A stretch of DNA of 48,000 nucleotides from Myxacorys chilensis ATA2-1-KO14 (GCA_019359275.1 JAHHHP010000034.1:1-48000); one strand, 5' to 3'. Shown: positions 104-48,000, counted from the stretch's first letter. A program made the numbers and translations. The notes: generated by a model not told the origin, from the sequence alone.

Positions 104-1258
104 ATACCAATTTAAATTAAGTACAGGGCAAAGGGGTTAGAGTGAGCAAAGTCGTTTAGGCGTCCTACTCATGGCTGGTATCACCTCAATTGATGTCAAG
201 GAAAGTTTGAATGATCTAACAGAACAACTGCGTCAAGCCAAAACGTCGACCCCGAAAGAACGATTTCAAGTGCTCTACGGGTTGAAACAAGAGAATGCAC
301 CCAGCATCAGTGCCATTGCCAAAGCGGTTGGGAAACATCGAAACACCGTACAAACCTAGCTATCGAATGATCGAGAGGGTGGAGTAGAAGCGATGTTGGA
401 AGTCAAGAAATCGCCAGGGGGAATACGGGTGATTCTGCAATGAGCAGAGATGGCACTGGCAAAGCGGTTGCAAAAGCCAAATAAATCATGGATTCAGCAG
501 TTATGGAAAAGTGCAGCAGTGGTTGTCCGAGACGTTGGGGATAGAGGCGGAGTATCATGCGGTCTACCAGATGACGCGCTACCGACTCAAAGCCAAACTT
601 AAGTCTGCCCGTCCGCAAAATTGTCAGCAGGATAGTCAGGGACGAGAGGCGTTTAAGCAACCCTCGCAGACGACCTTAAGCTGCTGAGCCAGTATGACCG
701 CCAAGGACGGCAAGATGAACGTCCCGTTCGCTACTTTGCTCAGGATGAGAGTCGCTTTGGGCTACATACCCTCATCGGACGATTAATCACTGCTTGTGGG
801 GTCAAACCGATTGGTCAGTGGCAATGGTTGTTCAAAACATTCTGGCTCTATGGTGCGGTCGAACCTGCAACCGGAGAGTCCTTTCTTCTGCAATTTTCCC
901 ATGTCGATACGAAGGGCTATCAGCGTTTCCTAAATGAGTTTTCTAGGGCTTATCCCGATAGTCTCAACATTCTTCAAGTCGATAATGGACGGTTTCACAA
1001 GGGTAAAAAGCTGGTTGTGCCAGAGAACATCATCTTATTGTTCCAACCGCCTTACTGCCCAGAGCTAAATCCGATTGAGCGGTTGTGGGAACATCTCAAG
1101 GCCGATCTCAAGTGGGCTTCGTTCAAGACTCTAGCTCAACTGCAAACCAAAGTTGATCAACTGCTGGCTCAGTTAATGCCGGAAATAGTTGCTTCGCTCA
1201 CAGGCTATCCGTTCATTCTGCAGGCCCTATCTGCCTTGAATGCTATTTAAATTGGTAT
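104..1258 (+). mobile_element. IS630-family insertion sequence, decayed copy
   Basis: 14-bp terminal inverted repeats ATACCAATTTAAAT (104-117) and ATTTAAATTGGTAT (1245-1258) bracket ~1.15 kb. The interval carries an HTH segment (171-359) and a DDE segment (657-1250) with '...QDESRFGL...DNGRFH...NPIERLW'. Confidence 0.8.
171..1250 (+). pseudogene. IS630-family transposase, disrupted
   Basis: In-frame TAG at 357-359 and TGA at 441-443 fall where the surrounding reading (WLS..., ...PQWAE...) expects Trp. At least two frame changes (about 480-490 and about 655-660) are needed to join the HTH part to the DDE part. Confidence 0.8.
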
Positions 1259-1719: not shown

Positions 1720-3960
1720 TTACTTGATTCCAGTAGACGATCGTTCATTAGTTAACAGACTGATGAGTCCACTGTCTACAAGGAGCGCATTCGCACTTGC
1801 TGAAGATGCGGTATGGTGTGCCTGCACCAACCATCCGCCTGCTACAGGCTCCACAACTAATTGGAGTTCTGATCGGTCACTGAGCCAACGTCCACGTGGA
1901 TCTATCAGAATCGTCAAGCCATTCGAAGTGGGTAGGCATCCTTCACTCACACCAACCTTGCGCAGTCCAATACAAGGTAGCCTATCCAGGGTGGTGTCGG
2001 ATGCTACATAGTGTAGCGCTTGGTCGTCGCAGTCGAGCCATTCGACCACAAAGGGAGCACTGCCTGTTGCACCATCTAAGGTTATCAGGCGGGAATCAAG
2101 GGATTCAACTGGCATGTATAACGGCGAAGTGTGATCAAACCTGCTCGCTACCATTGGTACATTGGAGAATGTGGTAGGGGCTCGACGATGAGGTGTGGAC
2201 AGCGACGCAAGTCCAGCCGCAGCCGCAGCCGCATCGCCGATGTCCCCTACTAGTTGGCGCCAATCAGACCAACGTGTTAGGAGAGCAGACCCCGAAAGTA
2301 GCAGCCACGGGTCATCAGCCCCTCGATCCAATAGCACTGCACGCATTGCAGGGCCATTAGTTTGTAGCTTAACAGCAGTCTCGTCAGCCTGGATTAATCG
2401 CTGAACGATATCGCGATGACGGTGCGAGTCAGCTTCACTAAGGCTGACCTGCCGCAAGGCACCAGTTGCACCGGAGGCATAGGCACGCACGGTAACTCCA
2501 CCTGGCACATAGTCCAGTCCCAAACTTACTACACGATGACGGGCTAGTCCCGCCAGAACCACCCGGTTTGCAGACTCTATGCTCAACCCTAGCGGTAGTG
2601 CCAGCAGCACGTGCTCACGGACTTTCCAGGCGCGAGGCTGTGCCGCTAGTGCAAGCCAGCGAGGATTGTCCTCTAAAGCAGGTTTGCGTACTGGTGTATA
2701 GGTACCGGAATGCTGCAGTGCCGCAACTTTGTCTCGATAAATCAGCCTCACCGCCGTATCCCAATCGGGGACAACGGCATCTAGGTACGAACGAACTGCC
2801 GCATCGGTAACCCTAGGAGCGATGCGGCAAACAACGGACTTTCGCAAATCTGGCTCTGTTGGTAGGGTGGGAAGTCCAAGATCACTGAGCGTGGAGTTGG
2901 CAACCTCTGGATCAACACTCGCCAACTCCAGGACAGCGTCCTCACGGGGGTTATGACCCAGTCGAACCTCCCAGGCGTTGGAACCCTCGTAGCTGTGCCA
3001 TCCCTTCTGGTGCTTGTGAAGGGCAATGCCAGGATCGTTGATCAAGCAGTTGGTCGAACAGAATCCGCACTCGTCGGGTTTTCGCCATACATCATCCTTC
3101 TCCATAAGGAAGGCAAGGATCTCCTGCCGACGAACAGGAGTATATCGATAAAAGTCTACGACCTTGATGCGGTCGAGCACCTCATCATGCTTAACGTTCC
3201 ACTGGTTGAGGCCCGAGAATCCCGGCGACTGATGATAAACACGCCGTCCATCTTCTAGCCACGCTTCAATCTCAACTGGGTCATAGATGTTGCGCATATG
3301 GAACCATTCCAGACGCTCTTGCATGATCTGGCCTCGGGAAAGACCAGTAACGATAAACCGCACGCCTAGCTTGTCAGCTCTGGTCAGAGCGTGGTCGAGC
3401 AAGCTACGGAAACAGCCCATGCAAGGCGTGGAGAACCGCGAGAGGCTATTCCTAATTGTCTCTCCCACTCCAGCGGGTCTAAGGGTCAGATGCGTAACAC
3501 CAAGCTTTTTGGTCACGCGATTGATATTATCCAATGCGCGAGCGGAGATAAAGCCGTTGTCAAGCGTGAATGTCGTTACCGACAGTCCCATCTCTACTAA
3601 TTTGTACAAGGCGTAGGTGCTGTCCTTGCCACCACTGTAAAGCAGCATACAATCGAATTGAGCCTGTTCGTCTCTCTGTAGCTGCGTTAGCAACCGGACA
3701 AGAGCCGCTGCCTCGCTGAACCACGCCTCGCTTCGCTCCCGATCTTGCTGGTAGCGCCGGCAATGCGAGCAGACTTGCCACTCATCGAAGCTGACTCCTG
3801 GATAGCGGATGCTGATCCCACAGCAGTCACACCGAGCCTCATCAATGTTAAATCTACGAGAGTCCGTATCTACTTGGTCGGCTAGGTCGATACTCACCAG
3901 TGGGCTCTTGCGAAGAGCGGAGATCACCATCGCTCGTTGATGTAGACGGTCTGCTATCAT
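1720..3960 (-). CDS. PP-loop ATP pyrophosphatase (N-acetyl-sugar-amidotransferase/WbuX-PseA-like N-terminal half) fused to a C-terminal condensation-like domain lacking the catalytic His motif
   Basis: The N-terminus has a Cys-ribbon 'CDCCGISIRYPGVSFDEWQVCSHCRRY' followed by the PP-loop 'MLLYSGGKDSTYAL'. The C-terminal ~310 aa shows C-domain-like spacing: 'RWLALAAQPRAW', 'LARHRVVSL', and 'WLLLSGSALLTRWS' where HHxxxDG would sit. Confidence 0.75.
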   Translation of the reverse strand: MIADRLHQRAMVISALRKSPLVSIDLADQVDTDSRRFNIDEARCDCCGISIRYPGVSFDEWQVCSHCRRYQQDRERSEAWFSEAAALVRLLTQLQRDEQAQFDCMLLYSGGKDSTYALYKLVEMGLSVTTFTLDNGFISARALDNINRVTKKLGVTHLTLRPAGVGETIRNSLSRFSTPCMGCFRSLLDHALTRADKLGVRFIVTGLSRGQIMQERLEWFHMRNIYDPVEIEAWLEDGRRVYHQSPGFSGLNQWNVKHDEVLDRIKVVDFYRYTPVRRQEILAFLMEKDDVWRKPDECGFCSTNCLINDPGIALHKHQKGWHSYEGSNAWEVRLGHNPREDAVLELASVDPEVANSTLSDLGLPTLPTEPDLRKSVVCRIAPRVTDAAVRSYLDAVVPDWDTAVRLIYRDKVAALQHSGTYTPVRKPALEDNPRWLALAAQPRAWKVREHVLLALPLGLSIESANRVVLAGLARHRVVSLGLDYVPGGVTVRAYASGATGALRQVSLSEADSHRHRDIVQRLIQADETAVKLQTNGPAMRAVLLDRGADDPWLLLSGSALLTRWSDWRQLVGDIGDAAAAAAGLASLSTPHRRAPTTFSNVPMVASRFDHTSPLYMPVESLDSRLITLDGATGSAPFVVEWLDCDDQALHYVASDTTLDRLPCIGLRKVGVSEGCLPTSNGLTILIDPRGRWLSDRSELQLVVEPVAGGWLVQAHHTASSASANALLVDSGLISLLTNERSSTGIK
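1723..2673 (-). other. Degenerate condensation-like (docking/interface-type?) domain of the PP-loop protein (approximate bounds)
   Basis: Motif order and spacing resemble C1/C2/C3 of NRPS C domains. The C3 position reads 'LSGSALLTRWS' (nt ~2266-2304) with no His-His. Confidence 0.4.
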
Positions 3961-4107: not shown

Positions 4108-4812
4108 TTGGCTAAGAAAGAGGGTGAACATGCTTGCAGAGTTGACATCTGGCGCTTAAGGTTCGACAGCGCGATGATAGAGCAGAACGGATGGTCACTG
4201 CTAGACTCATCTGAGAGAGTGCGCGCCAAGTCCTTTCGGTTCGAACATGATTGCCGTCGCTTTGTGCTGAGCCATGCCTTCCTTCGAACTGTACTTGCGG
4301 GCTATCGCGACGAACGTCCGGAAAAAGTTGCCTTTACTTTGGGACTTCATGGGAAGCCTAGACTGGCAAATCGTGAGGATCCTCTAAGATTCAACCTTAG
4401 CCATTGTGATAGCACCTGCTTAGTTGCTGTCACTGAAGGGACTGAGATCGGGGTAGATGTAGAGGATTTGCGTGTAGTAGCCGATCGAGACTTGATAGCA
4501 ACTAGCGTGCTTACCTCCGCGGAGCAGGAAGCCATGTGGACCGCTGCACCAGAATTGCACGACGAATTGTTCTTGCGTTTCTGGACCCGTAAGGAGGCAG
4601 TGCTGAAGGCGGATGGGTCTGCCTTGTTCGAAGCTCCCGGTTCTGTAGAGACACACATCAATGCACCAGATTGTGCTGTGTTACGCTGTGCAGCTAACGG
4701 TGGCAAGGCCTCCATCTACCGCCTGTTCGATCTTAGTTGCGAATCTGTGATTGCTGCCGTTGCGATTCTTGATTGGGCGGGATCCGTCGTTCTAGCGGAG
4801 CGGAGTACATGA
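4108..4812 (+). CDS. 4'-phosphopantetheinyl transferase, Sfp type
   Basis: Motifs 'GKPRL', 'FNLSHCDSTCLVAV', 'GVDVEDL' and 'FWTRKEAVLKADG'. TTG start at 4108 lies 7 nt after the AAGGAGG Shine-Dalgarno (4094-4100). Confidence 0.9.
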   Translation: MAKKEGEHACRVDIWRLRFDSAMIEQNGWSLLDSSERVRAKSFRFEHDCRRFVLSHAFLRTVLAGYRDERPEKVAFTLGLHGKPRLANREDPLRFNLSHCDSTCLVAVTEGTEIGVDVEDLRVVADRDLIATSVLTSAEQEAMWTAAPELHDELFLRFWTRKEAVLKADGSALFEAPGSVETHINAPDCAVLRCAANGGKASIYRLFDLSCESVIAAVAILDWAGSVVLAERST

Positions 4813-5438
4813 TGCCTGATCATCCCCTTCTGAAGCAATGGTTGCTTGATCCTGCAGTCGTTGGGATACCGTTTATCCAAGAGCTCGGCGGACTGCACGC
4901 TTTGGAACTGGTAGCTGATCTCATTGATGCTAAGGGCTGGTGGCAGCATGGCTTTCCGCCGTCTTCATTCCCAAAATACGTGGCGCATTTAGCAGCGCCG
5001 ATGGAACGCCCACAACCAGGTTTTGTCCGAATTCTTTACTTTCCCACGCGCCCGGCTGATATCCCGGCATTCTTGGCACTAATATCTTTTGTTATTTTAT
5101 TTGCGCGATTAAATTATTATCATGGGCCGGTCGCTTGGCTCAACTTTCCGCTAGGTCTACTGGATGAGGCACACATTGGAACCATGCGGTCCGTCATGGT
5201 GGAACTCGATAGACTTGTTTTGCGACCCCAGCAAATGGGTCCGAGTCTGGCTTTCGAGGGCGACGATGCCACCGATGCTGTTCTCTTTATTGGTGCGCGC
5301 CCACCGAAGGCATGGGAACTTATGTCTGGTTCCGTCTTTGCTACGGAGTGGGGGCTGCCGCTCATCTGCATTCCCAGTAGGACGCTCAGCGAGGTGACAC
5401 TTGACCGAGTCCCATGGTTGGAGCAAGGCAGCATATGA
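4809..5438 (+). CDS. Hypothetical protein (no family recognised), translationally coupled on both sides
   Basis: ATG at 4809 overlaps the PPTase stop (ATGA), and its own stop overlaps the NRPS ATG at 5435 (ATGA). It has one hydrophobic stretch, 'IPAFLALISFVILFARL'. The ORF-track start at 4773 is less likely. Confidence 0.6.
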   Translation: MMPDHPLLKQWLLDPAVVGIPFIQELGGLHALELVADLIDAKGWWQHGFPPSSFPKYVAHLAAPMERPQPGFVRILYFPTRPADIPAFLALISFVILFARLNYYHGPVAWLNFPLGLLDEAHIGTMRSVMVELDRLVLRPQQMGPSLAFEGDDATDAVLFIGARPPKAWELMSGSVFATEWGLPLICIPSRTLSEVTLDRVPWLEQGSI

Positions 5439-11364: not shown

Positions 11365-12006
11365 TACAACTTGCTCAGCAAACAGACAGGAATTTTGGCT
11401 TGTCCCTTGATAAGTACCATCAATATTAAATGCCTAGAGATAATAGTTGCTGATGCAATCTACTAACCTACTGTTTGCAATTGGGGTAAAAACATACTCC
11501 AACAAATCTGCCTCAAATACTGTTTCATTAACCTTGACTACGTTCACCTGAGTCTGTAAGCAATTTGTATAACCCTGCCATCCTCCCGTACTCGCCGACT
11601 TACAAGACTTCACTTACGTAAATTGAGTGTAACTGAATTGCTCTGCTAGTCTGTGCTCAATTAATCTCTACCATAGGAATGTTGATTAATCCTGGTCGTC
11701 ATGTGCCTCAATTTGAAAGGTTAACTATGTCATTCTCTACTATCTATCTTTGCTAAGGAGCCTTACAAAAATAACTTGAGCAACTCCTGAAACACTTTGC
11801 TTGCCATACAAGGCTTTTAAGGTTTCGGCAGTGCAATTTAAATTTGTAAGGATCCTAAGCTGCTTTCATCGCCTCATCCCTTACTTCATAACTTGAACCT
11901 CATCGTGAATCTTGTAAAGACCAGAAGCAATTATCGTTTAGTAGAAATTTGTCTGACACTGGAATTACAAGAAGAAATAACTTTGAGATATGGAGGAAAC
12001 GAATCA

Positions 12007-12975
12007 GTGGATATTACAAGTTCAAGGCTTGTTTCTGGAGCTAAGTGTACTGTTGCTTATCCTGATATAGAAGCTGCAGCCTTGCGGTTATCTAATCAAG
12101 CTAGTCAGACACCTGTTTTCGTTTCTAGAACTGTTAACCAAATTACACATAGCCAAGTATTCTTCAAGTGTGAGAATTTTCAGCGTACAGGGTCTTTTAA
12201 GTTCCGAGGTGCGTACAATGCTCTAGCCCAGTTATCCGAGGCAGAGAAGCAGAGAGGTGTCTTGACGTATTCATCTGGAAATCACGCTCAAGCGATTGCT
12301 TTGGCCGGAAAATTATTGGGTATTCACACTACTGTTGTGATGCCTGAAGATGCTCCAGCAGTCAAGCAAGCTGCCACTCGCAGCTACGGAGCGGAGGTTA
12401 TTCTGTACAACCGTTTGAAAACTAATCGGGAGATTCTGGGTCAGACAATTGCTCAGGAGCACGGACTCATAGTTATTCCCCCTTATGATCATCCCCATGT
12501 TGTAGCAGGACAAGGTACAGCAGCCAAAGAACTTATCCAGGAGGTTGGCTCACTAGATTTAATGCTAGTTTGTTGTGGAGGTGGTGGACTCCTTTCAGGA
12601 GCTGCAATTGCTGCGAATAAGCTGTCACCGAGCTGTAAGATTATCGGGGTAGAACCGGAAGCTGCTAATGATGCTACCCGCTCATTTCATACCAAGATGC
12701 TGTATGAAATTCATAACCCTAACACCGTTGCTGATGGAGCCAGAGCGCCCTCCTTGGGTCAAGTAACTTTTCCTTTAGTATTACGCTATGTTCACGATAT
12801 GGTGACCGTTTCTGAGGAAGAAATTCAACGCACTGTAGTGTTCTTATGGGAGCGAATGAAGATTGTTGTAGAACCTACAGGAGCAGTAGCAGCGGCTGCA
12901 TTACTGGGAGGTGTAGTTGCTATGCCGAATAGTAGGATTGGTGTAATTGTTAGTGGAGGGAACGTAGATTTATAG
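12007..12975 (+). CDS. PLP-dependent serine/threonine dehydratase family protein (short form, serine-racemase/TdcB-like size)
   Basis: PLP-lysine motif 'GSFKFRGA', plus 'YSSGNHAQAIA' and 'CCGGGGLLSG'. The likely start is GTG 12007, 9 nt after GGAGGA. The ORF-track start 11893 adds an implausible leader. Confidence 0.8.
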   Translation: MDITSSRLVSGAKCTVAYPDIEAAALRLSNQASQTPVFVSRTVNQITHSQVFFKCENFQRTGSFKFRGAYNALAQLSEAEKQRGVLTYSSGNHAQAIALAGKLLGIHTTVVMPEDAPAVKQAATRSYGAEVILYNRLKTNREILGQTIAQEHGLIVIPPYDHPHVVAGQGTAAKELIQEVGSLDLMLVCCGGGGLLSGAAIAANKLSPSCKIIGVEPEAANDATRSFHTKMLYEIHNPNTVADGARAPSLGQVTFPLVLRYVHDMVTVSEEEIQRTVVFLWERMKIVVEPTGAVAAAALLGGVVAMPNSRIGVIVSGGNVDL

Positions 12976-13072
12976 CGATTTTGAAGCTCATTAGTTTAAT
13001 ACAGGTATGCTATTTCGCTCAATATTCAAGCTTTAATTCTGACACTTTCACCTAATCCCAATTTGGTATAAG

Positions 13073-13612
13073 TTGAGGATTGATAGTGTCTTGTGGGCTC
13101 GGCCAGCAGTAGGCAGTCTCATTGAGCAAGTTAGTGGCGTAGAGATGCCGCTGCTTAGGACAAGAGTACGATGGGTATGGACTCAAGCTCCACTTGCTCA
13201 CCAACGACAAAGGCAAGTTGCTGGCGTTTCAATTAACGAGTGTTACTGTTCGATAACCGAGTGCCCGTGCCGACCCTGACGTAGGAACTCATCGGTAAGC
13301 TCTTTGGCGAGCGGGACTGTATTTCGCAAGCCTTGTTTACGCAACTGTGGCTACGCGGTTTGCAGTTAGTCACTAAACTCAAAAAGAACATGAAAAATCG
13401 CTCGATGCCGCTGTTGGACAAGATTTGATTGCGTAAGCTGAGCGATTATCGAATCAGTCAGTAACCAGTTGAAGAACATTTCTCAAATTGAGCATTCTCG
13501 TCACCGTTCTCCAGTTAACTACTTGGTCAATCTAGTTTGTGGTTTGATTGCCTATTGTCATCAGTTGAAGAAGTCCTGCCTCATACTTGATACCTCTTTG
13601 CCTGCGTCTGTT
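13073..13612 (+). pseudogene. IS982-like transposase remnant, 5'-truncated and multiply frameshifted
   Basis: Pieces across three frames: 'YGLKLHLLTNDKGKLLAFQLT', 'LIGKLFGERDCISQALFTQLWLRGLQLVTKLKKNMKNR', '[43 protein letters not shown]'. Confidence 0.7.
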
Positions 13613-13654
13613 TGACCCGAATTCACATTAGGTTAAGTAAATTTAAAGAGATTG

Positions 13655-13809
13655 CTCAATTTTGCAAAGCCTGTGCTATTGTTCACCCATCACTAAAAGT
13701 TTTTCACATTAAGTTCCTTACAGTTGCTTATCCATCTCTAGAGCTATCACAACACAGTTTCCGGCAGTCTCTTCTCCCGACCCAACTGCATGCAATGGAG
13801 GCATTAATA
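13655..13809 (+). pseudogene. Relic of the 3' end of a second radical-SAM/SPASM gene copy
   Basis: Nucleotide similarity to 15515-15652, the 3' end of the intact rSAM gene. Examples: '...cacagtttcc..cagt..cttc..cccaact.c....aatggaggcattaataATG' versus '...cacagttccc..cagt..cttc..cccaaact.c..aatgggggtattgtaATG'. The read-through peptide '...KACAIVH...HSF...MEALI' parallels '...KPYCGVH...SSF...KMGVL*'. Confidence 0.6.
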
Positions 13810-14214
13810 ATGGCAACAAGAGATTTTGCACGAGCTCTACTTAGAGAAGTTCCATTGGCCCATATTGAGGTTTATATTCAGGTTCTCAACGATGGAATCT
13901 TAAGAGAACGTGATGAGAAAATGGCTGACAATGGCACAATTTGTGGTGGTGGCTGTGATGCGAAAGGTGGTGCCTGCGGCGCGTGGTGCGCGCAAGCTGA
14001 TAACTATTGGGGTTGCTTTGACATCCAAGGTCATTCAGGCGTAACTAGAGAAGATTTCCAAAATGCTGTAGACAATCCGAATGCGTTCCGTCAGGCGCTC
14101 AACGAAGAGCTGATGGGCGTTGTGCGGTCAGTAGATAACCTAGGAGAGAATAGCCAAAGTGCACCTCACCTCGGACCGAAGATTAACCCCAGACTTTGGG
14201 TCAATCGTGGCTAA
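13810..14214 (+). CDS. Five-cysteine ~134-aa protein, paralog A (candidate radical-SAM substrate)
   Basis: ATG lies 8 nt after GGAGG (13797-13801). It is roughly 80% identical by eye to the 15653-16045 product. Core 'CGGGCDAKGGACGAWCAQADNYWGC' spans 13942-14016. The 200-aa ORF-track version reads through the rSAM relic. Confidence 0.8.
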   Translation: MATRDFARALLREVPLAHIEVYIQVLNDGILRERDEKMADNGTICGGGCDAKGGACGAWCAQADNYWGCFDIQGHSGVTREDFQNAVDNPNAFRQALNEELMGVVRSVDNLGENSQSAPHLGPKINPRLWVNRG

Positions 14215-14282: not shown

Positions 14283-14456
14283 AGGGTAAGCATGAGGAAA
14301 TCGCTAACCTAATTGTGTTTAGCTTGCTTTGATTGCGTGAATGTTAGATGTGCAAAAGGTTCTTCGGTACATAAGGTGTGCTTGATTCACTTAGTTTTGC
14401 AACTTTGGAACTCAAGACTATCAGCTCACAATATTAAGCAGAAGGAGTTGGTTATT

Positions 14457-15653
14457 GTGGACAAAAGTAGCTTGATGGCGAAAACAGTAGAGCCGAACCA
14501 TCCTTCCCTTCATCGCCTTGCCATAATGCTCACTGAGGTTTGTAATCTCGCTTGTCCCTACTGTTACGAACATCGCGACCCGGAGATTTTCTACAATCCA
14601 GATCCCCATAAGCGGACGATGACGGAGGCATCGGTCATCGATATGCTCGAGCGAGCTTACAAGATCTGGCCACGAATTAGCACTCTATTCTTTTTCGGTG
14701 GCGAACCCCTGCTCAAGCGTAAGCTCATCCGTCAAATCTGTGAGGTTGTTGAGGCCGGTAGTATTCCCGGTATGGGAATTAAGCCGAAATATGCCATGAT
14801 CACCAACGCAACCCTGCTTGACGAAGATGCCCGGGAGATGGTGCTCAAGTATGACTTCGGTTTGAATATTAGCTTAGACGGTCCGCCGGTAGTAAATGAC
14901 CTATCACGGATTGATAGGCATGGTCATGGCACATCCTCGCTCTCTATGCAGAACCTAGCCAAATTGCGCGATGCTGGCGGTACTTATCACATTGAGGCTA
15001 CATTCTCGCGCTTCCATCTGGAGGCTGGGGTCACCGTTATGGACTTAATGGACTATTTTAATTCTGAGCATGGGGTAAGGGTTCTGCATGCGCCTTGGGT
15101 ATCGGCTACTCCGGATAACCGTTACTATTTGACTGACGACGAGATCGTTGAGTCTTATATTCCAGCAATTCGTTATTCCTTAGACAATTTGCGTAAAGGA
15201 GTGCCAAAGGTTATCTTTTTGGTCGACCATTGGCTGCAAGTACTGAAATCTTATGACCCTATGGCACGCCGCGCTTACTGTCCAGCCTTTTTCTCAGATT
15301 TGTCGATGAATCCGGCAGGAGACATCTACCCTTGCTTCATGTTCAACGGATACCAGTACTTGAAAATGGGCAATGTTTATGACGATCAGTTTTTTAAGAC
15401 AATGAACTGGTCAGTTGGCAGAGCCTTTCAAGAAGCTATTTTTGGGCCTTGCGATTGCCCAACTGAGTATCAGGCATTCCATTCCGGCTGTGTTGGTGCC
15501 GACCGGATCGCCACCAATTCTATTTTAGCGAAGCCTTATTGTGGCGTTCATACTCGCCTCCTAGAGGCATTCCTCGAAATGCTTATGGAGGATAGCAGCA
15601 CAGTTCCCAACAGTTCCTTCCACGCCCAAACTACTAAAATGGGGGTATTGTAA
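14457..15653 (+). CDS. Radical SAM enzyme with C-terminal SPASM/twitch-like Cys-rich extension
   Basis: 'CNLACPYC' (CX3CX2C, 14541-14564), 'FFFGGEPLL', 'ITNATLL', 'ISLDGP'. C-terminal region: 'CPAFFSDLSMNPAGDIYPC' (GX4C), 'CDCPTEYQAFHSGC', 'YCGV'. The likely start is GTG 14457, 9 nt after AAGGAG (alternative ATG 14475). Sequence upstream of that is homologous to the non-coding tail of copy 2. Confidence 0.9.
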   Translation: MDKSSLMAKTVEPNHPSLHRLAIMLTEVCNLACPYCYEHRDPEIFYNPDPHKRTMTEASVIDMLERAYKIWPRISTLFFFGGEPLLKRKLIRQICEVVEAGSIPGMGIKPKYAMITNATLLDEDAREMVLKYDFGLNISLDGPPVVNDLSRIDRHGHGTSSLSMQNLAKLRDAGGTYHIEATFSRFHLEAGVTVMDLMDYFNSEHGVRVLHAPWVSATPDNRYYLTDDEIVESYIPAIRYSLDNLRKGVPKVIFLVDHWLQVLKSYDPMARRAYCPAFFSDLSMNPAGDIYPCFMFNGYQYLKMGNVYDDQFFKTMNWSVGRAFQEAIFGPCDCPTEYQAFHSGCVGADRIATNSILAKPYCGVHTRLLEAFLEMLMEDSSTVPNSSFHAQTTKMGVL

Positions 15654-18599: not shown

Positions 18600-19643
18600 T
18601 TATCGCTCTAAATCGTAGAAGAATTCAGGAATCTCAAGATACTCGCCTGTAGCAATTGCACGGTCATATATCCATTTCCCCAAAGCAAGATCGAGAATTC
18701 CGAGTCCGAATGGTGAAAACACAACGGTACGATTCCGTTGTATTATGCACTTGCCCTCTAGGACGTCAGCAAGTGAGCCAGTAATAAAATCTCGTGATCC
18801 TGCCAGCTTTTCGGCCAAATGTAGGGATGTGTGGGCATTCATTACATGATGAACGTCATCAACAATGTTGCAGGTATTAAGAAGCAATTCGGGAGCAAGA
18901 TCACGAAGTGAGACATGTAGAATAACAGGATGATGCTCAAAAAGTGCATATTCATGTACGTGCGGTTCTGAAGCAACTGTCGCGAATAAAACTAAATCTG
19001 ATTCTCGTACAACCGAAGTAAGAGTAGGGAACACAGATATGGATGTGTGCTGCTTAAGCTCGCAAACGCACTCAGCAAAGCGTTGAGCTTCTCTAATATT
19101 GGTGTCGTATATACGAACATTGCTGATATTCCAGCCCGTTCCTATTAAGAAACGATAGATATAGCGTGATATAAAACCTGCACCAATGATCCCAAGCGTT
19201 TGCACTTTGCGTCCACCTGTCAGGTGTTCTGCTGCAAGTCCAGCGAATGCAGCAGTTCGAGCCGCTGAAATGATCGACGCCTCCAGGCATGCAAACGGAT
19301 AGCCAGTTTCGCCGTTATTAAGAATTAGCACAGCGGAGGCACGCGGAATACCGTTGACGATATTGTCGGGATAGCTAGCAATCCACTTTATACCAGAAGT
19401 ATGCCAAGGATATTCAAGATACGAAGGTAATGCAATGATACGCGCATTCGGTTTATCACGAAAATTCAGGAAAAGGCTGGATGGATTAACGCTGTGTTCT
19501 CTCGAGTGAGCAATGTAAGCATCACGTACAATCGTGATGCAGCCCTCAAGGTTTTCATTAACGAGGCGATGTACTGTACGCCCAGTGATAATCGAGAATG
19601 TGAATGAACTAGATGATTCAGAACAGGAATTGGGATTGGACAT
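18600..19643 (-). CDS. sbnB: SbnB-like NAD-dependent dehydrogenase (ornithine cyclodeaminase/mu-crystallin family) for L-2,3-diaminopropionate synthesis
   Basis: 'RIIALPSYL...SGIKWIASYPDN...RASAVLILNNGETGYPFACLEASIISAARTAA' parallels the remembered S. aureus SbnB 'RIIAMPSHI...SGIKWIGS...RASGVIILNDPETNYPIAVMEASLISSMRTAA'. It is adjacent to an SbnA homolog. Confidence 0.8.
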   Translation of the reverse strand: MSNPNSCSESSSSFTFSIITGRTVHRLVNENLEGCITIVRDAYIAHSREHSVNPSSLFLNFRDKPNARIIALPSYLEYPWHTSGIKWIASYPDNIVNGIPRASAVLILNNGETGYPFACLEASIISAARTAAFAGLAAEHLTGGRKVQTLGIIGAGFISRYIYRFLIGTGWNISNVRIYDTNIREAQRFAECVCELKQHTSISVFPTLTSVVRESDLVLFATVASEPHVHEYALFEHHPVILHVSLRDLAPELLLNTCNIVDDVHHVMNAHTSLHLAEKLAGSRDFITGSLADVLEGKCIIQRNRTVVFSPFGLGILDLALGKWIYDRAIATGEYLEIPEFFYDLER

Positions 19644-19656
19644 ACATTACACTAGC

Positions 19657-20637
19657 CTATGCATTGTCAGTAGCATTCACACGCCACTCAACCCAACGAC
19701 GGTTAAAGATGTTATTAAGGTAAGCGTTGCCACGGTCACAACATAGAAACAAGACACGGGGTCGAGTACGCTGGTTCAATTTGGCGAAATATTGCTTGAT
19801 AGCGCTGTAAGCGCTGCCACTGGAACCACCTACAAAGAGACCATATTTCTCAAGTAGTTCATGGCAACCTGCGATGGTTTCGACTTCGGATACTAACACA
19901 ACCTCGTCAATGAGGGCGTGTTTAAGTAAAGGGGGTATAATGCTTGATCCCAAACCAGAAATCCAACGTTTATACAGTGAATGTCTGAAGATTACTGACC
20001 CCTCTACGTCTACTGCAACAATTCTGATATTGGCATTATGTTCTTTGAGTCGTTGAGATACACCGGCTATGGTTCCAGCCGAGCTAACACCTAAAAATAC
20101 GTAATCGATAGAGGAAATACTCTGCCAAATTTCCTCGCCAGTGAGATGGTAATGAGCCTCCATGCAGTCAGGGTTACCATATTGATTAGGCCAGTATGAG
20201 TCAGAGATTTCGCTTTTGAGCTGCTGAACTTTGCATAAACGTGACTTCAAGAAGCCACCAGTATCATCGTGGTTTTCAACTTTAATCACGCGGTCACATT
20301 GCGAGCGTAGCCAAGATTCATACAGCGGCGATATATTCGGATCAATAACCGGAATAAAATTAATTTCTAGCATTTTTGCTAGTGTGGCTATTGCACAGGC
20401 AAAGTTACCTGAGGAAGACTCAATGATAGTAGTTTGCGATTCGATTTCACCACGTTCGATAGCACGCTTTAAAGTCCAAAGAGCTGGTCTATCCTTGATA
20501 CTGCCAATACCGTTAAGATATTCGAGCTTTGTAAACAAATCTATATGGTTGTTTGTCAGTTGAATAACAGGTGTAGGGCAAATGATTTTCTCCACAACTG
20601 CAAGTCGTTCAACAAGCCCTTGTGCTAATGCCGTCAT
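19657..20637 (-). CDS. sbnA: SbnA-like PLP enzyme (cysteine synthase fold) for L-2,3-diaminopropionate synthesis
   Basis: 'FTKLEYLNGIGSIKDRPA', 'IESSSGNF', 'VIDPNISP', 'TGGFLKSRLCKVQQL', 'YWPNQYGNP', 'IVAVDVEGSVIF', 'CDRGNAYL'. These are close to the remembered SbnA blocks, and the length is 326 aa. Confidence 0.85.
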   Translation of the reverse strand: MTALAQGLVERLAVVEKIICPTPVIQLTNNHIDLFTKLEYLNGIGSIKDRPALWTLKRAIERGEIESQTTIIESSSGNFACAIATLAKMLEINFIPVIDPNISPLYESWLRSQCDRVIKVENHDDTGGFLKSRLCKVQQLKSEISDSYWPNQYGNPDCMEAHYHLTGEEIWQSISSIDYVFLGVSSAGTIAGVSQRLKEHNANIRIVAVDVEGSVIFRHSLYKRWISGLGSSIIPPLLKHALIDEVVLVSEVETIAGCHELLEKYGLFVGGSSGSAYSAIKQYFAKLNQRTRPRVLFLCCDRGNAYLNNIFNRRWVEWRVNATDNA

Positions 20638-41158: not shown

Positions 41159-42721
41159 TCAGGTTCTCCTTGAAGACGGTGAAATACGAGTACTTGGTGC
41201 TGCCAGTTGTGAAAGGGTAGCCGTAATAATCTCACCATTGATCAGTAGATTGTTAGCGGCTGCCATATCCTCGTTCATAGACCTATCACCGTTCAAAGGC
41301 GAGATTCGGTCTCGAACGGACTGGTAGACTGGGGCGGTAGCGGGAGAGAGGCGGAGGGAGGGATCGACGTCTATAGCAGCACAAGCTGTTACTAGTTCGA
41401 TAGCCAGCACCATCTCTAGGTTGCTGATGATCCTCAGCGCCTTTAGTGCCCCTGTACTGCCCATGCTGACGTGGTCCTCCTGTAAGTGACATGTCATAAT
41501 GGTGTCGACTGATGACGGAGTCGCCAGAACTTTACTCTCATTAACAAGTGCCGCTGCGGTATATTGCCAGACCATTAGACCCGAATCCACACCTGGGCAA
41601 GTAGCCAGGAAGCTAGGCAGTCCGTGCTGCCCGGACAGTAACTGATAAATCCGCCGTTCCGAAATGCTCATTAGGTCAGCGAGTCCGATAGCCAGGACAT
41701 CGAGCGCCATGGCGGTTGTCTGTCCGTGCATACTCCCATTGGTGAGGAATAGATTTTCGTCCGGGAACAACAACGGGTTGTCCGAGACGCTGTTGCAGTC
41801 TCGTTCTACTATCTGGGCTACAAAGGCAAAAGCTTGGCGTGCCGCTGCATGAACCTGTGGAGCACAACGAAAGGAATAGGGGTCCTCCTTCAATGGATCA
41901 CAACGATCAAGTCCTGCATGGTTACCCCCAGCAAGCAGTTTGGTCAGGTTGTCCATCACATCCCATCGTTCCGGGTGGGTAGTGATTGCCTTCAGGCGGT
42001 GGTTAAAGAATGTGTCTGCAGCGGCAAATCCCTGAATGCTGAGCGCACAAATAAGATCTGCGCAGGACAGCATTCGCTCGGCTCTTTCCAGAATGTGTAG
42101 GGCGCAGGCGTTAAGAAACTGAACACCGTTTGTCAGAGCTAGACCTTCCTTAGCCCGGAGTATTAACGGATACCAACCGTGCTCGGTCAACATCTTGGAA
42201 GTGCTGCACCGAATACCGCCATGTCTAAACAAGCCTTCTCCAATGAGCGGCAGCGCGAGGTGTGCTAGCGGGGCAAGGTCACCACTAGCACCGACGCTGC
42301 CGCGCATCGGAACAACAGGTAGCAAGTCCGCTGCTAGAAAATCCAGCAATCGTTTGACTACCTCTACACCAACTCCTGAATGCCCGGTGCGAAACGACAT
42401 CAATTTAAGGACAATCATCGCCCGAACAATAGGCGCAGGGGCATCTTCGCCGACTCCACAGGCATGGGAACGCAGGTGATTATGCTGCAACCGCGATATG
42501 TCGTCGGTGCCCACCTGTTGATGACACAGCGCGCCAAAACCTGTGTTCACGCCGTATACTGACGCATTGCCCAGTGAGAGTAAATCGGCATACGCGGCAC
42601 CCGCTTTAATGGCGCTCCAAGTTGCCGGAGAAAGCGTCAGGGTGCTCCCGGCGCGACACGCCTTTCTGATCGCAGTAAGGGGCATATAGTCCGAGGAAAT
42701 TTCGAAGGATTTGCTATCCAT
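41159..42721 (-). CDS. MIO-dependent aromatic amino acid ammonia-lyase/aminomutase (HAL/PAL/TAL family)
   Basis: 'GSVGASGDLAPLAHLA' (Ala-Ser-Gly MIO triad), 'YGVNTGFG', 'LQHNHLRSHACGVG', 'SDNPLLF', 'QEDHVSMG'. Overall it closely parallels the remembered HutH. Confidence 0.88.
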   Translation of the reverse strand: MDSKSFEISSDYMPLTAIRKACRAGSTLTLSPATWSAIKAGAAYADLLSLGNASVYGVNTGFGALCHQQVGTDDISRLQHNHLRSHACGVGEDAPAPIVRAMIVLKLMSFRTGHSGVGVEVVKRLLDFLAADLLPVVPMRGSVGASGDLAPLAHLALPLIGEGLFRHGGIRCSTSKMLTEHGWYPLILRAKEGLALTNGVQFLNACALHILERAERMLSCADLICALSIQGFAAADTFFNHRLKAITTHPERWDVMDNLTKLLAGGNHAGLDRCDPLKEDPYSFRCAPQVHAAARQAFAFVAQIVERDCNSVSDNPLLFPDENLFLTNGSMHGQTTAMALDVLAIGLADLMSISERRIYQLLSGQHGLPSFLATCPGVDSGLMVWQYTAAALVNESKVLATPSSVDTIMTCHLQEDHVSMGSTGALKALRIISNLEMVLAIELVTACAAIDVDPSLRLSPATAPVYQSVRDRISPLNGDRSMNEDMAAANNLLINGEIITATLSQLAAPSTRISPSSRRT

Positions 42722-44709: not shown

Positions 44710-46563
44710 ATGTGTGGAATTGCCGGCATTATTACTCTGGGCAATGGTCCACCGCCTGACTTAAACGTGGCACTGCGCATGGCTGAGGCAATACGCCATC
44801 GTGGACCTGACGGTCATGGCTACTATTCGGACAATTATGCAGCCATGGCCGTTCGCCGCTTAGCTATTGTTGCGCGTCGGGGTGGAGACCAACCGATTCG
44901 CTCCGGCAGTCAGACACTAATTGCCAATGGTGAGGTATATGATTATGTTGCTCAACGCGAAAGACTTCGCGCTGCTGGAGCAGTTTTTACTGGCGAGTCT
45001 GATGTTGAGGTTCTCCTACACCTCCTCGCCGATGGCGATCCTAGTCGATTAATCGATGTTAACGGTCAATTCGCCTTAGCCCTATGGGATCGCGAGGCAC
45101 GACGGCTACTTTTAGCGCGCGATCACTTCGGTATTGCCCCGCTGTTCTACGCAGAATGCAATGGTGCCCTGATCTTTGGCTCAGAGATCAAAGCTCTTCT
45201 TCAATATCCCGACCTCGATCGAACGCTGGACCCTGCTGGGCTGGATCAGGTTGCCACCTTTCCTGGTTTAGTGAGTCCAACGACAATGTTCCGGCATGTT
45301 CGCAGTCTGCCCCCAGGCAGTTACCTCGTAGCTGATCGTCAAGGTGTTCGGGTACAGTGTTACTGGGATCTTGACTATCCATTGGCTGAGGCTACCGACC
45401 GATCGGATGAGTGCCTGGAAAACGCATACGTGGCTGAACTGGCGCGATTACTGGATGCTGCGACAGAGCGGCGGTTGCAAGGCGAAGCTGAGGTGGGACT
45501 ATTGCTGAGCGGTGGCCTCGACTCATCAATGATCGGCGGCATTCTGCGCCGTCTTCACCCAGAGCACCCGATCCGGGCCTATTCAGCGGTTTTCCCTGGC
45601 CGAACTTTTGATGAGAGTCGCTTCCAACGCGCTGCTGCTGCCGCATCTGGACTGACATTGACTCAAGTATCATTTGACACCAATCGCATTGTCGATGCTC
45701 TGTCAGATATGATTGCGCACGCAGAGTGTCCTGTGCGGGAGTCTTACAACGTTTGTAGCCTTGTCCTGGCTCGAGCGGCGCGCAACGACAGTGTTACTGT
45801 GTTGCTGGGAGGCGAGGGTGCGGATGAGTTGTTCGCCGGTTATCCTGGGTATTACGTCGATGTAGCACTCCATAACAATCGTCCTCTTTTCACCGAAAGC
45901 GGTAGTGTGCAAGGGAACTGGGGCAACGCTGGGCTTCGCTATGAACGGGAATACGACGATCTCGCACGAAAGTTGCGCGGACTTTATAGCGGTGACATTC
46001 GTCGCGAACTCGCGCAGGAAAACGCCCTAGATGTCACACAACCCTGCCTTCAAGCACTCCGCGGTCGGCATGTCCAACACCAGCGATCCTATCTCGATGT
46101 CAAGCTTCGCTTGGCCGACCATCTTCTCGGTGATCACGGTGATCGCATGATGTATGCAAGTGGTGTTGAGGCGAGATTTCCGTTTTTAGACAAGGACTTA
46201 GTCACCTTCGTGCGCACTATCCCGCCGCAGATAAATTTGAAGAATGGTGTTGAGAAGTATCTGCTGCGACGGGTGGCTGAACGAGACTTGCCCCGTCCCT
46301 TGAGGGAGCGGCGAAAGTACGGATTTCGTGCTCCTGGTACCAACGATCTACTATTGGACGAAAGGGTCCGTGCCTGGCTTTCTCCTCACCGTATTCGGCA
46401 CGATGGCTGGTTCGATCCGGCAGCCGTGGCATCCCTAGTGTCCAAAGCTGAGGGTCGCCAGAATGACCTCAATCCGCATGTGGAGGATGATCTACTGATG
46501 ATTGTATTGTCTTTCAACATCTTCCTTGATGCATTTCACACTGCCAACAATGTAGCACTCTGA
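44710..46563 (+). CDS. Asparagine synthetase (glutamine-hydrolysing) family amidotransferase
   Basis: N-terminal nucleophile 'MCGIAG', 'RHRGPDG', PP-loop 'LLSGGLDSS', 'GEGADELFAGY'. Confidence 0.88.
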   Translation: MCGIAGIITLGNGPPPDLNVALRMAEAIRHRGPDGHGYYSDNYAAMAVRRLAIVARRGGDQPIRSGSQTLIANGEVYDYVAQRERLRAAGAVFTGESDVEVLLHLLADGDPSRLIDVNGQFALALWDREARRLLLARDHFGIAPLFYAECNGALIFGSEIKALLQYPDLDRTLDPAGLDQVATFPGLVSPTTMFRHVRSLPPGSYLVADRQGVRVQCYWDLDYPLAEATDRSDECLENAYVAELARLLDAATERRLQGEAEVGLLLSGGLDSSMIGGILRRLHPEHPIRAYSAVFPGRTFDESRFQRAAAAASGLTLTQVSFDTNRIVDALSDMIAHAECPVRESYNVCSLVLARAARNDSVTVLLGGEGADELFAGYPGYYVDVALHNNRPLFTESGSVQGNWGNAGLRYEREYDDLARKLRGLYSGDIRRELAQENALDVTQPCLQALRGRHVQHQRSYLDVKLRLADHLLGDHGDRMMYASGVEARFPFLDKDLVTFVRTIPPQINLKNGVEKYLLRRVAERDLPRPLRERRKYGFRAPGTNDLLLDERVRAWLSPHRIRHDGWFDPAAVASLVSKAEGRQNDLNPHVEDDLLMIVLSFNIFLDAFHTANNVAL

Positions 46564-46570
46564 GGTTCCT

Positions 46571-48000
46571 ATGACGCCGTTTCCAGACTCTGTACAGGCT
46601 TGGTTCTTCGCTGTCGCCGACAAACAGCCCGATGCCGTGGCCGTCGTCACTGATGATCAAACTCTTACTTATAGTGAATTAAGCTGTAGATCCCGTGGAG
46701 TGGTATCCGCCCTAAAGTCTAAAGGAGTTCAACCTGGAACAATTGTTGCCATTTTCTGCCCCGAGCCAGCTGACTTCATTGTAGCGTTGATCGGTGTTCT
46801 AGCGGCTGGCGGTGTCCCGTGTCCACTGGACACGACTTGGCCAATGCGTCGACTAATCCAGTTGCTGGAGATTACTACACCGGCCTTTGGGATAGTTGGA
46901 CTTGGGCATGGTAACGCTCTGAAGACTATGGCCCCTACATGGCAGCCGATGGAAATAGTGGAATTGAATCCCAACTTTCCAAAAGATGGCGATGCGCCGA
47001 GCTGGACGCCCCACCCTGACAGTCCATGCTACGTCTTTTTCACCTCGGGCTCGTCCGGCCGACCGAAGGGAATTGTCGGGCGAACTATCGCAGTAACACA
47101 CTTCATCGATTGGGAGATCCGGACATTTGGCGTAACGACCACCGATGTGATACCAATGCTAACGAGTCCTGGGTTCGATGCCGTGCTACGTGACATCTTC
47201 ACGCCGCTATGTGCGGGCGGGCGCATTATAGCACCCGTCAATCGCGAGCTGCTTATCGACGCTGAAGCTCTTGCTGTATGGTTAGGCCACAAGGGAGCTA
47301 CACTTTGGCATACGACACCATCACTGCTCCGTAGCGTGTTGCGTTGCAACAAGGCATCAAGCCTGCCGAACCTGCGCCTTGGGCTGACCGCAGGCGAACC
47401 TCTCCTCCCATCGGATATCGAGGCGTGGTTTGCTGTGTTCGGAGATCGGGCTGAACTGGTGAACTTTTATGGCCCATCTGAAACCACTATGATCAAGATG
47501 TTTCACCGCATTACCTACCAAGACATGCAACGCGCACGTGTTCCTATCGGCCGCCCCATCGATGGCTGTCGCGCAATCATCTTGGACAGCGCAGGGGCTC
47601 CTGCGGGTGTGGGCATAGTCGACGAAATTTATCTGCGAACGCCCTATCGGTCGTTAGGCTATCTAGGACAACCGGACCAGACAGTAAAGGTATTTGTGCC
47701 CAACCCTCTAACCAATTCGGCTGATGACATCGTATACCGGACTGGAGACTTGGGACGGATGGATGAAGATGGGGTCTTTGAGTTCTTTGGACGGGTAGAC
47801 TGGCAGCTTAAGATTCGGGGCGTCAGGGTTGAACCCAGTGAAGTCGAGGATGTTCTACGTCGACATGCTGACGTACTTGACATAACTGTAGTGGGATACG
47901 CGTTTGAGGATTCCGAACTTCAGCTTTGTGCTTATGTAGTGCTGCGGGAGAATGCTAGCATCGATGCAATTCGGGCATTCGGTGCTGAGCGGCTCTTGGA
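46571..48000 (+). CDS. NRPS, 5' part (starts directly with an A domain; continues beyond window)
   Basis: Not in the ORF track because no stop occurs before the window end. My translation from ATG 46571 is open to 48000 and shows 'VFFTSGSSGRPKG', 'SPGFDAVLRDIF', 'NFYGPSETT', 'YRTGDLGR', 'LKIRGVRVEPSEVE'. Confidence 0.9.
   Translation, partial: MTPFPDSVQAWFFAVADKQPDAVAVVTDDQTLTYSELSCRSRGVVSALKSKGVQPGTIVAIFCPEPADFIVALIGVLAAGGVPCPLDTTWPMRRLIQLLEITTPAFGIVGLGHGNALKTMAPTWQPMEIVELNPNFPKDGDAPSWTPHPDSPCYVFFTSGSSGRPKGIVGRTIAVTHFIDWEIRTFGVTTTDVIPMLTSPGFDAVLRDIFTPLCAGGRIIAPVNRELLIDAEALAVWLGHKGATLWHTTPSLLRSVLRCNKASSLPNLRLGLTAGEPLLPSDIEAWFAVFGDRAELVNFYGPSETTMIKMFHRITYQDMQRARVPIGRPIDGCRAIILDSAGAPAGVGIVDEIYLRTPYRSLGYLGQPDQTVKVFVPNPLTNSADDIVYRTGDLGRMDEDGVFEFFGRVDWQLKIRGVRVEPSEVEDVLRRHADVLDITVVGYAFEDSELQLCAYVVLRENASIDAIRAFGAERLL

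Follow-up and report, generated by a model that had tools for sequence, protein, structure and literature searches.

The closest described relatives of the gene studied here are the AMDH domains, insertions of ~330 amino acids (aa) carrying an SGGKD motif within the adenylation (A) domains of two nonribosomal peptide synthetases (NRPSs), CysH of cystobactamid and AlbIV of albicidin biosynthesis (Gross et al. 2021, PMC7966384). When L-Asn is bound to CysH, the AMDH dehydrates its side-chain amide to β-cyanoalanine or, after hydroxylation by CysJ, converts it to isoasparagine; cystobactamid synthesis also includes a shuttle step (PMC7966384). CysH, which was dark brown when purified, resisted crystallization, and an ATP-dependent adenylation mechanism for its AMDH is a proposal only; all AMDH homologues in the 2021 survey were inserted in A domains (PMC7966384). 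Here we analyse a gene near one end of a 48,000-nucleotide stretch of DNA from Myxacorys chilensis ATA2-1-KO14 (GCA_019359275.1 JAHHHP010000034.1:1-48000; hereafter the window), which encodes an AMDH-type domain lying outside any A domain and fused to an apparently dead domain of the epimerization (E) type. We term the protein AMDH-E*, with E* denoting the dead domain. Our favoured interpretation, to which we assign a probability of roughly 55%, is that AMDH-E* is an AMDH acting in trans, that it forms a three-gene subsystem with an AsnB-type amidotransferase and an A–thiolation (T) didomain protein of specificity code DARH, and that E* serves in docking to the carrier.

A preliminary description, made from the sequence, had proposed a PP-loop enzyme of the WbuX/PseA/WbpG type joined to a dead condensation-like domain, and knew of no described example of such a fusion. 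The stand-alone fusion was likewise not found in the literature searched, subscription-only papers being outside its scope; the searches yielded just the cystobactamid paper of 2021 with its correction, and one review. PP-loop domains of the same family within NRPSs have, however, already been described (PMC7966384). The AMDH enzyme family of NRPS biosynthesis, with its nitrile and iso-amide products, is thus known, whereas the excised stand-alone architecture, the fusion to a dead E-type domain and the conserved association with AsnB and an A–T protein of non-Asn code look new.

An AMDH-type domain outside an adenylation domain

The gene is a single open reading frame (ORF; positions 1720–3960, minus strand) and has the two-part architecture first proposed for it, a zinc-ribbon/PP-loop half followed by a condensation-superfamily half without the HHxxxDG motif (Table 1). 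A second, independent assembly contig (L007) encodes an identical 746-aa protein with the same neighbours, and a JGI metagenome contig (L088) carries an orthologue of 97% identity. An AlphaFold model built with 29 homologues is confident for aa 40–410, with predicted local distance difference test (pLDDT) values mostly >90 in the AMDH domain, acceptable for aa 445–585, and below a pLDDT of 50 for aa 586–746.

Pfam returns only weak PP-loop matches, to ThiI and QueC, for the N-terminal half. The NCBIfam model of WbuX (TIGR03573) matches aa 44–355 (E = 1.1e-26) with 94.1 bits against a curated cutoff of 203.2 bits, and a Foldseek search of the PDB places the N-acetyl sugar amidotransferase (NASAT) of Legionella (LpNASAT, 8WEX) first (E = 1.2e-11, 370 columns), followed by the PP-loop sulfur enzymes TtuA, LarE and YcfA. 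A genome scan with an alignment of the PP-loop domain recovered at least 408 genomes, among them that of Xanthomonas albilineans; the best match of the whole scan to the window domain has 46% identity. The X. albilineans ORF encodes a 941-aa A(PP-loop)-AMP-binding_C-T protein and adjoins an O-methyltransferase gene; from the organism, the length and the architecture, we take this protein to be AlbIV. Residues 14–400 of AMDH-E* align with residues 441–828 of the X. albilineans protein (35% identity, E = 9e-74). Because this alignment starts before the PP-loop domain and ends after it, in both cases within the C-terminal subdomain of the A domain (Asub), AMDH-E* appears to retain Asub remnants on both sides. 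The N-terminal one matches the segment just before the PP-loop insertion and is also found in fused homologues; on the C-terminal side, homologues show partial matches to AMP-binding_C (PF13193) directly after the PP-loop domain, and the fused-family profile matches the Asub of BmdB and of 4GR5. Neither an AMP-binding core nor a PP-binding domain has a Pfam match in the 746-aa protein. Since Asub remnants flank the AMDH domain, AMDH-E* resembles what would be left of an A(AMDH)-T-E module after loss of the adenylation core and the carrier domain.

Protein searches returned ~25 relatives of 600–900 aa in which the same PP-loop domain is followed by a PF00668-positive region, and ~90 NRPS relatives in which it lies between AMP-binding and AMP-binding_C, that is, in an interrupted A domain (P0029, for example). 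The AMDH domain gives full-length hidden Markov model (HMM) matches in more than 90 A-embedded homologues. Among genomic relatives, ~70 of 80 are A-embedded; the window domain lies outside any A domain, with Asub remnants as its only flanks.

All family-invariant residues are retained in the window protein. The NASAT zinc-binding motif is CxxCxn[GN]xCxxC (PMC10607449); AMDH-E* has SGGKDS together with C44xxC47-x16-C64xxC67, the [GN] position being Q here and G in most relatives. The FCSTNC motif is replaced by GRSTNC in many A-embedded homologues. Outside the ribbon, four Cys residues (C104, C180, C183 and C305) are invariant, and the CxxC formed by C180 and C183 aligns to that of the [4Fe-4S] enzyme LarE (8CNZ). 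Together, C180, C183 and C305, with C104, are a candidate second metal or Fe–S site; such a site is possible because of the four invariant Cys, the LarE alignment and the brown colour of CysH, and we keep a thioamide or amidine product as a minor alternative below.

Membership of the WbuX/N-acetyl sugar amidotransferase family was considered and rejected, given a score below half of the cutoff and an NRPS rather than glycan context in the window and in 13 related loci. The enzymes do share SGGKDS, the tetracysteine ribbon, the fold and a presumed activation of an amide carbonyl by ATP. They differ in that the structural alignment gives only ~16–18% identity, the window gene sits in an NRPS setting, and its relatives yield nitriles or iso-amides instead of acetamidino sugars. 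The earlier assignment to the WbuX/PseA/WbpG type therefore stands at the level of the PP-loop/WbuX-like superfamily, but the closest relative is the AMDH domain and not a generic WbuX amidotransferase. On sequence grounds, this half is a member of the NRPS AMDH family of CysH and AlbIV. With these it shares a ~330-aa domain with zinc ribbon and SGGKDS PP-loop, flanking Asub sequence at either end, a setting among NRPS genes and the expectation that its substrate is a carrier-bound side-chain amide; their clusters and the window cluster also have in common a pentapeptide-repeat gene and a TauD hydroxylase. Unlike them, the window AMDH has neither adenylation core nor T domain and carries a dead E-like domain as its fusion partner; it falls in a separate clade, its presumed partner A domain has a non-Asn code (DARHLAFMI), and AsnB is its constant companion.

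A degenerate epimerization-type domain

The C-terminal half on its own has no match in Pfam and none among PDB sequences; its homology is thus visible only through family profiles and the structure model. BLASTP aligns it to the PF00668-positive part of a relative (P0005) at E = 7e-8, across the active-site motif, and an HMM built solely from the C-halves of other members recognizes it at E = 7e-10. Foldseek superposes aa 445–585 of the model onto the N-lobes of PvdL-E2, SrfA-C, TycA and SgcC5 over ~150 columns (r.m.s.d. ~4 Å). Similarity to the condensation superfamily, on which the preliminary description depended, is therefore present. The best PDB matches of the family profile are E domains, namely PvdL-E2 (5e-44), TycA-E and GrsA-E. 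All fused C-halves score higher with an E-type than with a C-type HMM (277 versus 64 bits for P0004; 13.5 versus 0.0 for the window protein), the E-type set consisting for the most part of domains that follow A(AMDH)-T in related modules. In relatives, traces of motifs E1 and E7 are still visible in the C-halves.

The sequence LSGSALLTRWS aligns exactly at the column that reads H[E/G/D]xxxD in fused relatives and HHLxVDxVSW in in-cis E domains, so that it does replace HHxxxDG, as first noted. Whereas in-cis domains after A(AMDH)-T keep both HHLxVDxVSW and EGHGRE...SRTVGWFT, the fused proteins carry H[E/G/D]xxxD or worse, and xDHTxx, at the catalytic positions; the place of the second His varies among members (E, G, D, R or A). 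EGHGRE and SRTVGWFT are absent from the window protein, which has LDGATGSA in their place and nothing recognizable after it. In the clade of the window protein (with P0001, P0121, P0002 and P0123) the first His and the Asp are lost as well, the motif reading SGSALLTR, SASALLTG, RGTPLLLT or RTADDATW. Judged from these alignments, the C-half is derived from an E domain and has lost both E catalytic signatures, the second His of HHxxxD and EGHGRE. The earlier view of a dead condensation-like domain accordingly survives as to superfamily and loss of catalytic residues, but not in the narrow sense of a C domain. Compared with TycA-E, GrsA-E and PvdL-E2, which share its N-lobe fold and are the best profile matches of fused C-halves, it lacks the second His and the EGHGRE glutamate, has no T domain in cis and, in the window clade, has a short C-lobe.

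Confident resemblance to C/E domains is limited to the ~140 aa at the start of the C-half; among fused relatives, P0004 and P0005 have an E* that is better preserved. Between the C-terminal Asub remnant and E* there is just a ~30-aa linker modelled with low confidence (aa 416–444), and E* is thus without an in-cis upstream T domain. C-halves of the window type are rare (7 matches at E ≤ 1e-3 among 1.84 billion representatives). That of the window protein nonetheless seems to be maintained, for it aligns to that of P0002 with 29% identity (E = 2e-32), including the tail motif, which is conserved in P0121 and P0123 too. Against the 97% identical orthologue, dN/dS comes to 0.36 in the AMDH domain, 0.38 in the N-lobe of E* and 0.92 in the tail (11 substitutions); these regional values, that of the tail above all, are weak because there are only 40 substitutions in total.

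Non-catalytic condensation folds that recruit tailoring enzymes are found in glycopeptide NRPSs (the X domain) and with Asp β-hydroxylases (the interface domain). Like them, E* has a condensation-superfamily fold without catalytic residues, and it is presumed to make protein–protein contacts. By analogy, a role as a recruitment platform is plausible, though with the arrangement reversed: in the X and interface cases, a dead domain within the NRPS recruits a free enzyme, whereas E* is carried by the tailoring enzyme and would recognize the carrier or the NRPS.

Partner genes conserved across related loci

In a neighbour-joining tree of 94 AMDH domains (50 bootstraps), the fused proteins are monophyletic (47 of 50), and their sister group consists of four one-piece A(AMDH)-T-C proteins of Firmicutes with intact HHxxxDG (48 of 50). 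The fusion is present in Actinomycetota, Pseudomonadota and Acidobacteriota, the ORF remaining intact in relatives down to 43% overall identity with the tail motif conserved. Its context is exclusively NRPS, in all 13 related loci examined and in the window.

Gene order in relatives is AsnB, A-T and AMDH-E*, with the latter two abutting, as in Pseudomonas sp. S3E12 (L001), Streptomyces goshikiensis (L002), Amycolatopsis magusensis (L003) and a member of the Blastocatellia (L004). An AsnB-type gene is adjacent in all 13 subfamily loci, compared with 1 of 70 other AMDH loci. The partner A domain has a DARH or DPRH code in every one of the 13 (DARHxxxMx in fused loci), whereas the host A domains of ~60 A-embedded AMDHs, including AlbIV, have the Asn code DLTK[VI]GEVG. 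Codes were mapped through a GrsA fragment; we regard the mapping as valid, since it gives DAWTIAAIC for GrsA and recovers the Asn code in AlbIV. An Asp-racemase-type gene is a further neighbour in five actinomycete loci, where D-Asp is therefore a possible substrate.

The window contains an AsnB-type gene and an overlapping A-T gene at its far end (Table 1); the latter is cut by the window end, and the full gene is available on another contig (L006).

Some A-embedded AMDH domains are hosted by other A domains. Two loci have Gln-like codes (L013, DAQDLGVVD; L077, DAQDIGVVD), and two more have DAWQCGLID (L011) and DPQDLGLID (L043); together with an Asn-code locus (L070) they form a separate branch of the AMDH tree. 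Because the four host codes are non-Asn, AMDH chemistry is possibly applied to glutamine or other amides as well. A further, apparently uncharacterized NRPS type is widespread (many loci, L014–L087) in Acidimicrobiia, Acidobacteriota, cyanobacteria, Bacteroidota and others; it combines, in this order, an A domain resembling fatty acyl-AMP ligases, C-A(AMDH, Asn code)-T(-E) and a module of code DS[AV]L[IV]AEVW. It is likely to be a lipopeptide family with a cyanoalanine or isoasparagine residue.

Table 1 Coordinates of AMDH-E*, its domains and motifs, and associated genes in the window
Feature	Position	Strand	Basis and remarks
AMDH-E* gene	1720..3960	-	Single ORF, 746 aa; Asub remnant, Zn ribbon, PP-loop AMDH domain, Asub remnant, dead E-like domain
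Asub remnant, N-terminal, aa 1–37	3850..3960	-	Segment after core motif A8; aligns to X. albilineans NRPS residues 441–470
AMDH-type PP-loop domain, aa 38–368 (~330 aa)	2857..3849	-	TIGR03573, X. albilineans homologue, embedded homologues, Foldseek
Tetracysteine Zn ribbon C44xxC47...C64xxC67, aa 44–67	3760..3831	-	Invariant in family alignments; aligns to 8WEX
PP-loop S109GGKDS114 (SGGKDS), aa 109–114	3619..3636	-	ATP pyrophosphatase signature; sequence; invariant in family alignments
Invariant CxxC, C180 and C183, aa 180–183	3412..3423	-	Alignment across fused and A-embedded AMDH domains
FCSTNC motif, aa 300–305	3046..3063	-	Alignment; S302, N304 and C305 invariant, C301 variable
Asub remnant, C-terminal, aa 372–415	2716..2847	-	A9/A10 region, A10 lysine absent; aligns to X. 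albilineans residues ~800–828
N-lobe of dead E-type domain, aa 445–585	2206..2628	-	HMM, AlphaFold (pLDDT ~75–89), Foldseek
Degenerate active-site motif LSGSALLTRWS, aa 555–565	2266..2298	-	HHxxxDG position; column alignment
Shortened E-like remainder, aa 586–746	1723..2205	-	pLDDT <50; clade-conserved LIDPxGRWxSxRxxxQLVVE at aa 685–704
Sfp-type phosphopantetheinyl transferase (PPTase)	4108..4812	+	Pfam; divergently transcribed neighbour; arrangement repeated in L007 and L088
C-TauD fusion, 749 aa	38906..41155	-	Pfam, motif; HHIVCDG intact; candidate β-hydroxylase that would act before AMDH, link inferred
AsnB-type glutamine-dependent amidotransferase	44710..46563	+	PF00733 and GATase; TIGR01536, 404 bits against a cutoff of 267; N terminus MCGIAG (Cys2)
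A-(T) didomain gene, code DARHLAFMI	46556..48000	+	Pfam; cut by window end, full gene 616 aa on L006 at 11862–13712; likely carrier partner

Proposed mechanism and alternatives

In the pathway that we favour, the A-T didomain, with its non-Asn code, would charge its own carrier with an acidic amino acid, aspartate being the most likely one, and the AsnB-type enzyme would turn the side-chain carboxylate into a carboxamide. AMDH, using its SGGKDS loop and ATP, would then activate this amide and convert it to a nitrile of the β-cyanoalanine type or to an iso-amide, the chemistry demonstrated for the CysH homologue; the rearrangement to the iso-amide would be especially likely after β-hydroxylation by the C-TauD protein of the cluster, as CysJ does in its own pathway. 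E* would not epimerize. Its E-type surface, normally the receiver of an upstream carrier, would present the loaded pantetheine arm to an enzyme lacking a carrier of its own. The preliminary description had suggested ATP-dependent activation of a carbonyl in trans on the assembly line, giving an amidine, amide or thio product; the general idea agrees with our proposal, but the demonstrated AMDH chemistry is nitrile formation or conversion of Asn to isoAsn. Taken together, the AsnB, DARH A-T and AMDH-E* proteins may even constitute an undescribed on-carrier route from aspartate to a nitrile (or iso-amide) in two ATP-dependent steps, distributing the logic of QueC over two enzymes and repurposing a dead E domain as an adaptor; this wider scheme is tentative.

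Several points weigh against the favoured pathway. The AMDH-E* gene is 42 kb from its presumed AsnB and A-T partners, on the opposite strand and next to a transposase fragment, whereas the genes are contiguous in relatives. A second, more canonical AMDH gene may lie beyond the window end; sequence past the A-T gene was not found, L006, the sole contig recovered, ending 94 bp further on and a protein-based metagenome scan as well as a codon-degenerate DNA-pattern scan coming back empty. Fused members are known from sequence alone, and they would inherit from CysH a mechanism that is itself a proposal. That the DARH-code A domain takes an acidic substrate is a guess, and the free amino acid could be what AsnB amidates, or this enzyme might do no more than raise the supply of Asn. 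The four invariant Cys outside the ribbon, with the similarity in fold to Fe–S sulfur transferases, may leave room for other chemistry. Finally, docking is the weakest link of the proposal, because E* is more degenerate in the window clade than anywhere else: its motif has no H or D, its C-lobe has a pLDDT <50 and its tail has a dN/dS of ~0.9 (few counts).

The best supported alternative keeps the enzyme and changes its target: AMDH-E* would act on Asn loaded by the first module of a 4,294-aa NRPS (26101–38985), following β-hydroxylation by C-TauD, and the distant A-T protein would not be its partner. The first A domain of this NRPS has the Asn code DLTKVGEVG and no embedded AMDH, and the window contains a single AMDH domain; the C-TauD gene is immediately upstream; CysJ acting before AMDH is the order demonstrated in cystobactamid synthesis (PMC7966384); and the AMDH-E* gene does not adjoin the A-T gene in the window. 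We nevertheless regard this as unlikely, since AMDH-E* directly follows a DARH-code A-T gene in all other fused loci, TauD occurs within 10 kb in none of 12 other loci, and the association between AsnB and DARH would be left unexplained.

Alternatively, the gene could be debris, a decaying A(AMDH)-T-E fragment relocated beside a transposase, with the whole protein inactive or only its AMDH half at work. All E motifs are lost, the C-lobe is short and poorly modelled, dN/dS in the tail is 0.92, window-type C-halves are rare, and transposase-related sequences lie downstream in both the window and L088. Against this stand an ORF and tail motif that persist down to 43% identity, a fusion maintained across three phyla, the full set of AMDH invariants and a dN/dS of 0.38 in the N-lobe. 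Decay is, in our judgement, distinctly unlikely.

We consider it improbable that AMDH-E* makes an amidine or a thioamide, by adenylating the carbonyl of a carrier-bound backbone or side-chain amide and transferring ammonia or sulfide in the manner of WbuX-type enzymes or of CtaC. The nearest solved structure is indeed an N-acetyl sugar amidotransferase; TtuA and LarE, both [4Fe-4S] enzymes, are also similar in fold and profile, and the CxxC aligns; C104, C180, C183 and C305 are invariant, and CysH is brown; an always-adjacent AsnB could supply ammonia; and CtaC, an Fe–S PP-loop enzyme, thioamidates peptides bound to peptidyl carrier proteins (PCPs) in closthioamide biosynthesis (PMC6772006). 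CtaC resembles AMDH-E* in being a stand-alone adenine-nucleotide α-hydrolase that works on PCP-bound substrates, and a Cys-ligated cluster is possible in the window domain; it belongs, however, to the TtcA/TtuA branch, inserts sulfur, and has neither the Zn-ribbon/AMDH signature nor an E-like fusion. AMDH is by far the closest characterized relative (35% identity over 390 aa, compared with 16–18% to 8WEX), it yields a nitrile and an iso-amide, the TIGR03573 score is less than half of the cutoff, and scans with family libraries showed no sulfur-carrier or cysteine-desulfurase gene in the window. The last alternative, that the C-half keeps or has gained activity (as a CysB-like aminoacyl shuttle or in condensation through non-canonical residues), draws on the first His and Asp kept in most fused relatives (H[E/D/G]xxxD), on the unsplit Firmicutes form, where the C domain that follows A(AMDH)-T is canonical throughout, and on the known shuttle step of cystobactamid synthesis (PMC7966384), but is highly improbable, the catalytic position being variable (E, G, D, R or A), the window clade lacking both H and D, the alignments offering no other conserved polar residue and the window encoding separate, intact C domains.

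Genomic setting and other genes of the cluster

Just downstream of the AMDH-E* gene is a DDE_3 transposase fragment (828–1250, plus strand), and an HTH_33 transposase-related ORF occupies the same place in the orthologous contig (L088, 3506–3739); two assembly contigs break near the fragment. The gene is thus at a cluster edge marked by a mobile element, far from its usual AsnB and A-T neighbours. It is transcribed divergently from the PPTase gene, as described before; the 147-bp gap between them holds only with a TTG start at 4108, and is ~213 bp with the start chosen by a gene caller on the identical contig. A 221-aa ORF (4773–5438, plus strand) without Pfam or NCBIfam match lies between the PPTase gene and a C-A-T-C NRPS gene; the Pseudomonas locus (L001) encodes a homologue of it and, as in the window, a C-A-T-C protein (31% identity, collinear) and a stand-alone C protein.

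The C-TauD gene lies directly upstream of the 4,294-aa NRPS gene and overlaps its start. From its intact motif, C-TauD looks to be the second tailoring enzyme of this cluster fused to a C-family domain, in this case a seemingly catalytically competent one.

Other genes bear on amino-acid supply. A pyridoxal-phosphate enzyme (11893–12975, plus strand) scores 510 bits against a cutoff of 452 for threo-3-hydroxy-L-aspartate ammonia-lyase and has a weaker homologue in L001; an enzyme of this kind is odd for an NRPS cluster and suggests metabolism of β-hydroxy-Asp. An SbnB/SbnA pair (18600–20637, minus strand), both above their equivalog cutoffs, points to supply of L-2,3-diaminopropionate, and one A domain of the 4,294-aa NRPS has the code DIWEITADD. 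L017 and L037 likewise combine SbnA/B with AsnB-A(AMDH) genes, which most subfamily loci do not; diaminopropionate as the general substrate of the DARH A domain was rejected, SbnA/B being present in only 3 of 13 subfamily loci. An aromatic amino-acid lyase of the 4-methylideneimidazole-5-one type (41159–42721, minus strand) scores 525 bits against a histidine ammonia-lyase cutoff of 524, well above its own Tyr/Phe aminomutase scores; a Lyase_aromatic gene is also found in the Amycolatopsis locus (L003).

Mid-cluster is a radical S-adenosylmethionine/SPASM enzyme (14313–15653, plus strand) that resembles maturases of peptides made on the ribosome and modified after translation (RiPPs; PapB-like, below cutoff), with an unassigned ORF (13612–14214) alongside. 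The GC content is 0.44–0.49 over 10–22 kb, compared with ~0.54 elsewhere, and this low-GC stretch may be a mosaic insertion or part of a hybrid pathway.

A pentapeptide-repeat protein (43460–44311, plus strand), Qnr/MfpA-like but below the family cutoffs, is encoded beside the AsnB and A-T genes, with a homologue in Pseudomonas sp. S3E12 (L001, 20064–20969). The albicidin and cystobactamid clusters, which represent the two known uses of AMDH, encode pentapeptide-repeat proteins for self-protection. The gene hints at a topoisomerase-targeting product, possibly an antibiotic, and is offered as a lead only.

Implications

A naturally excised AMDH of ~370 aa plus an adaptor domain may ease structural study of the AMDH mechanism. 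The association of AsnB with the DARH code provides a genome-mining rule for nitrile- or isoasparagine-type residues whose precursor is acidic and not Asn itself. Should the dead E domain indeed dock carriers, an adaptor placed on the tailoring enzyme would join the adaptor placed on the assembly line among the solutions to recruitment, and would offer a tool for NRPS engineering.

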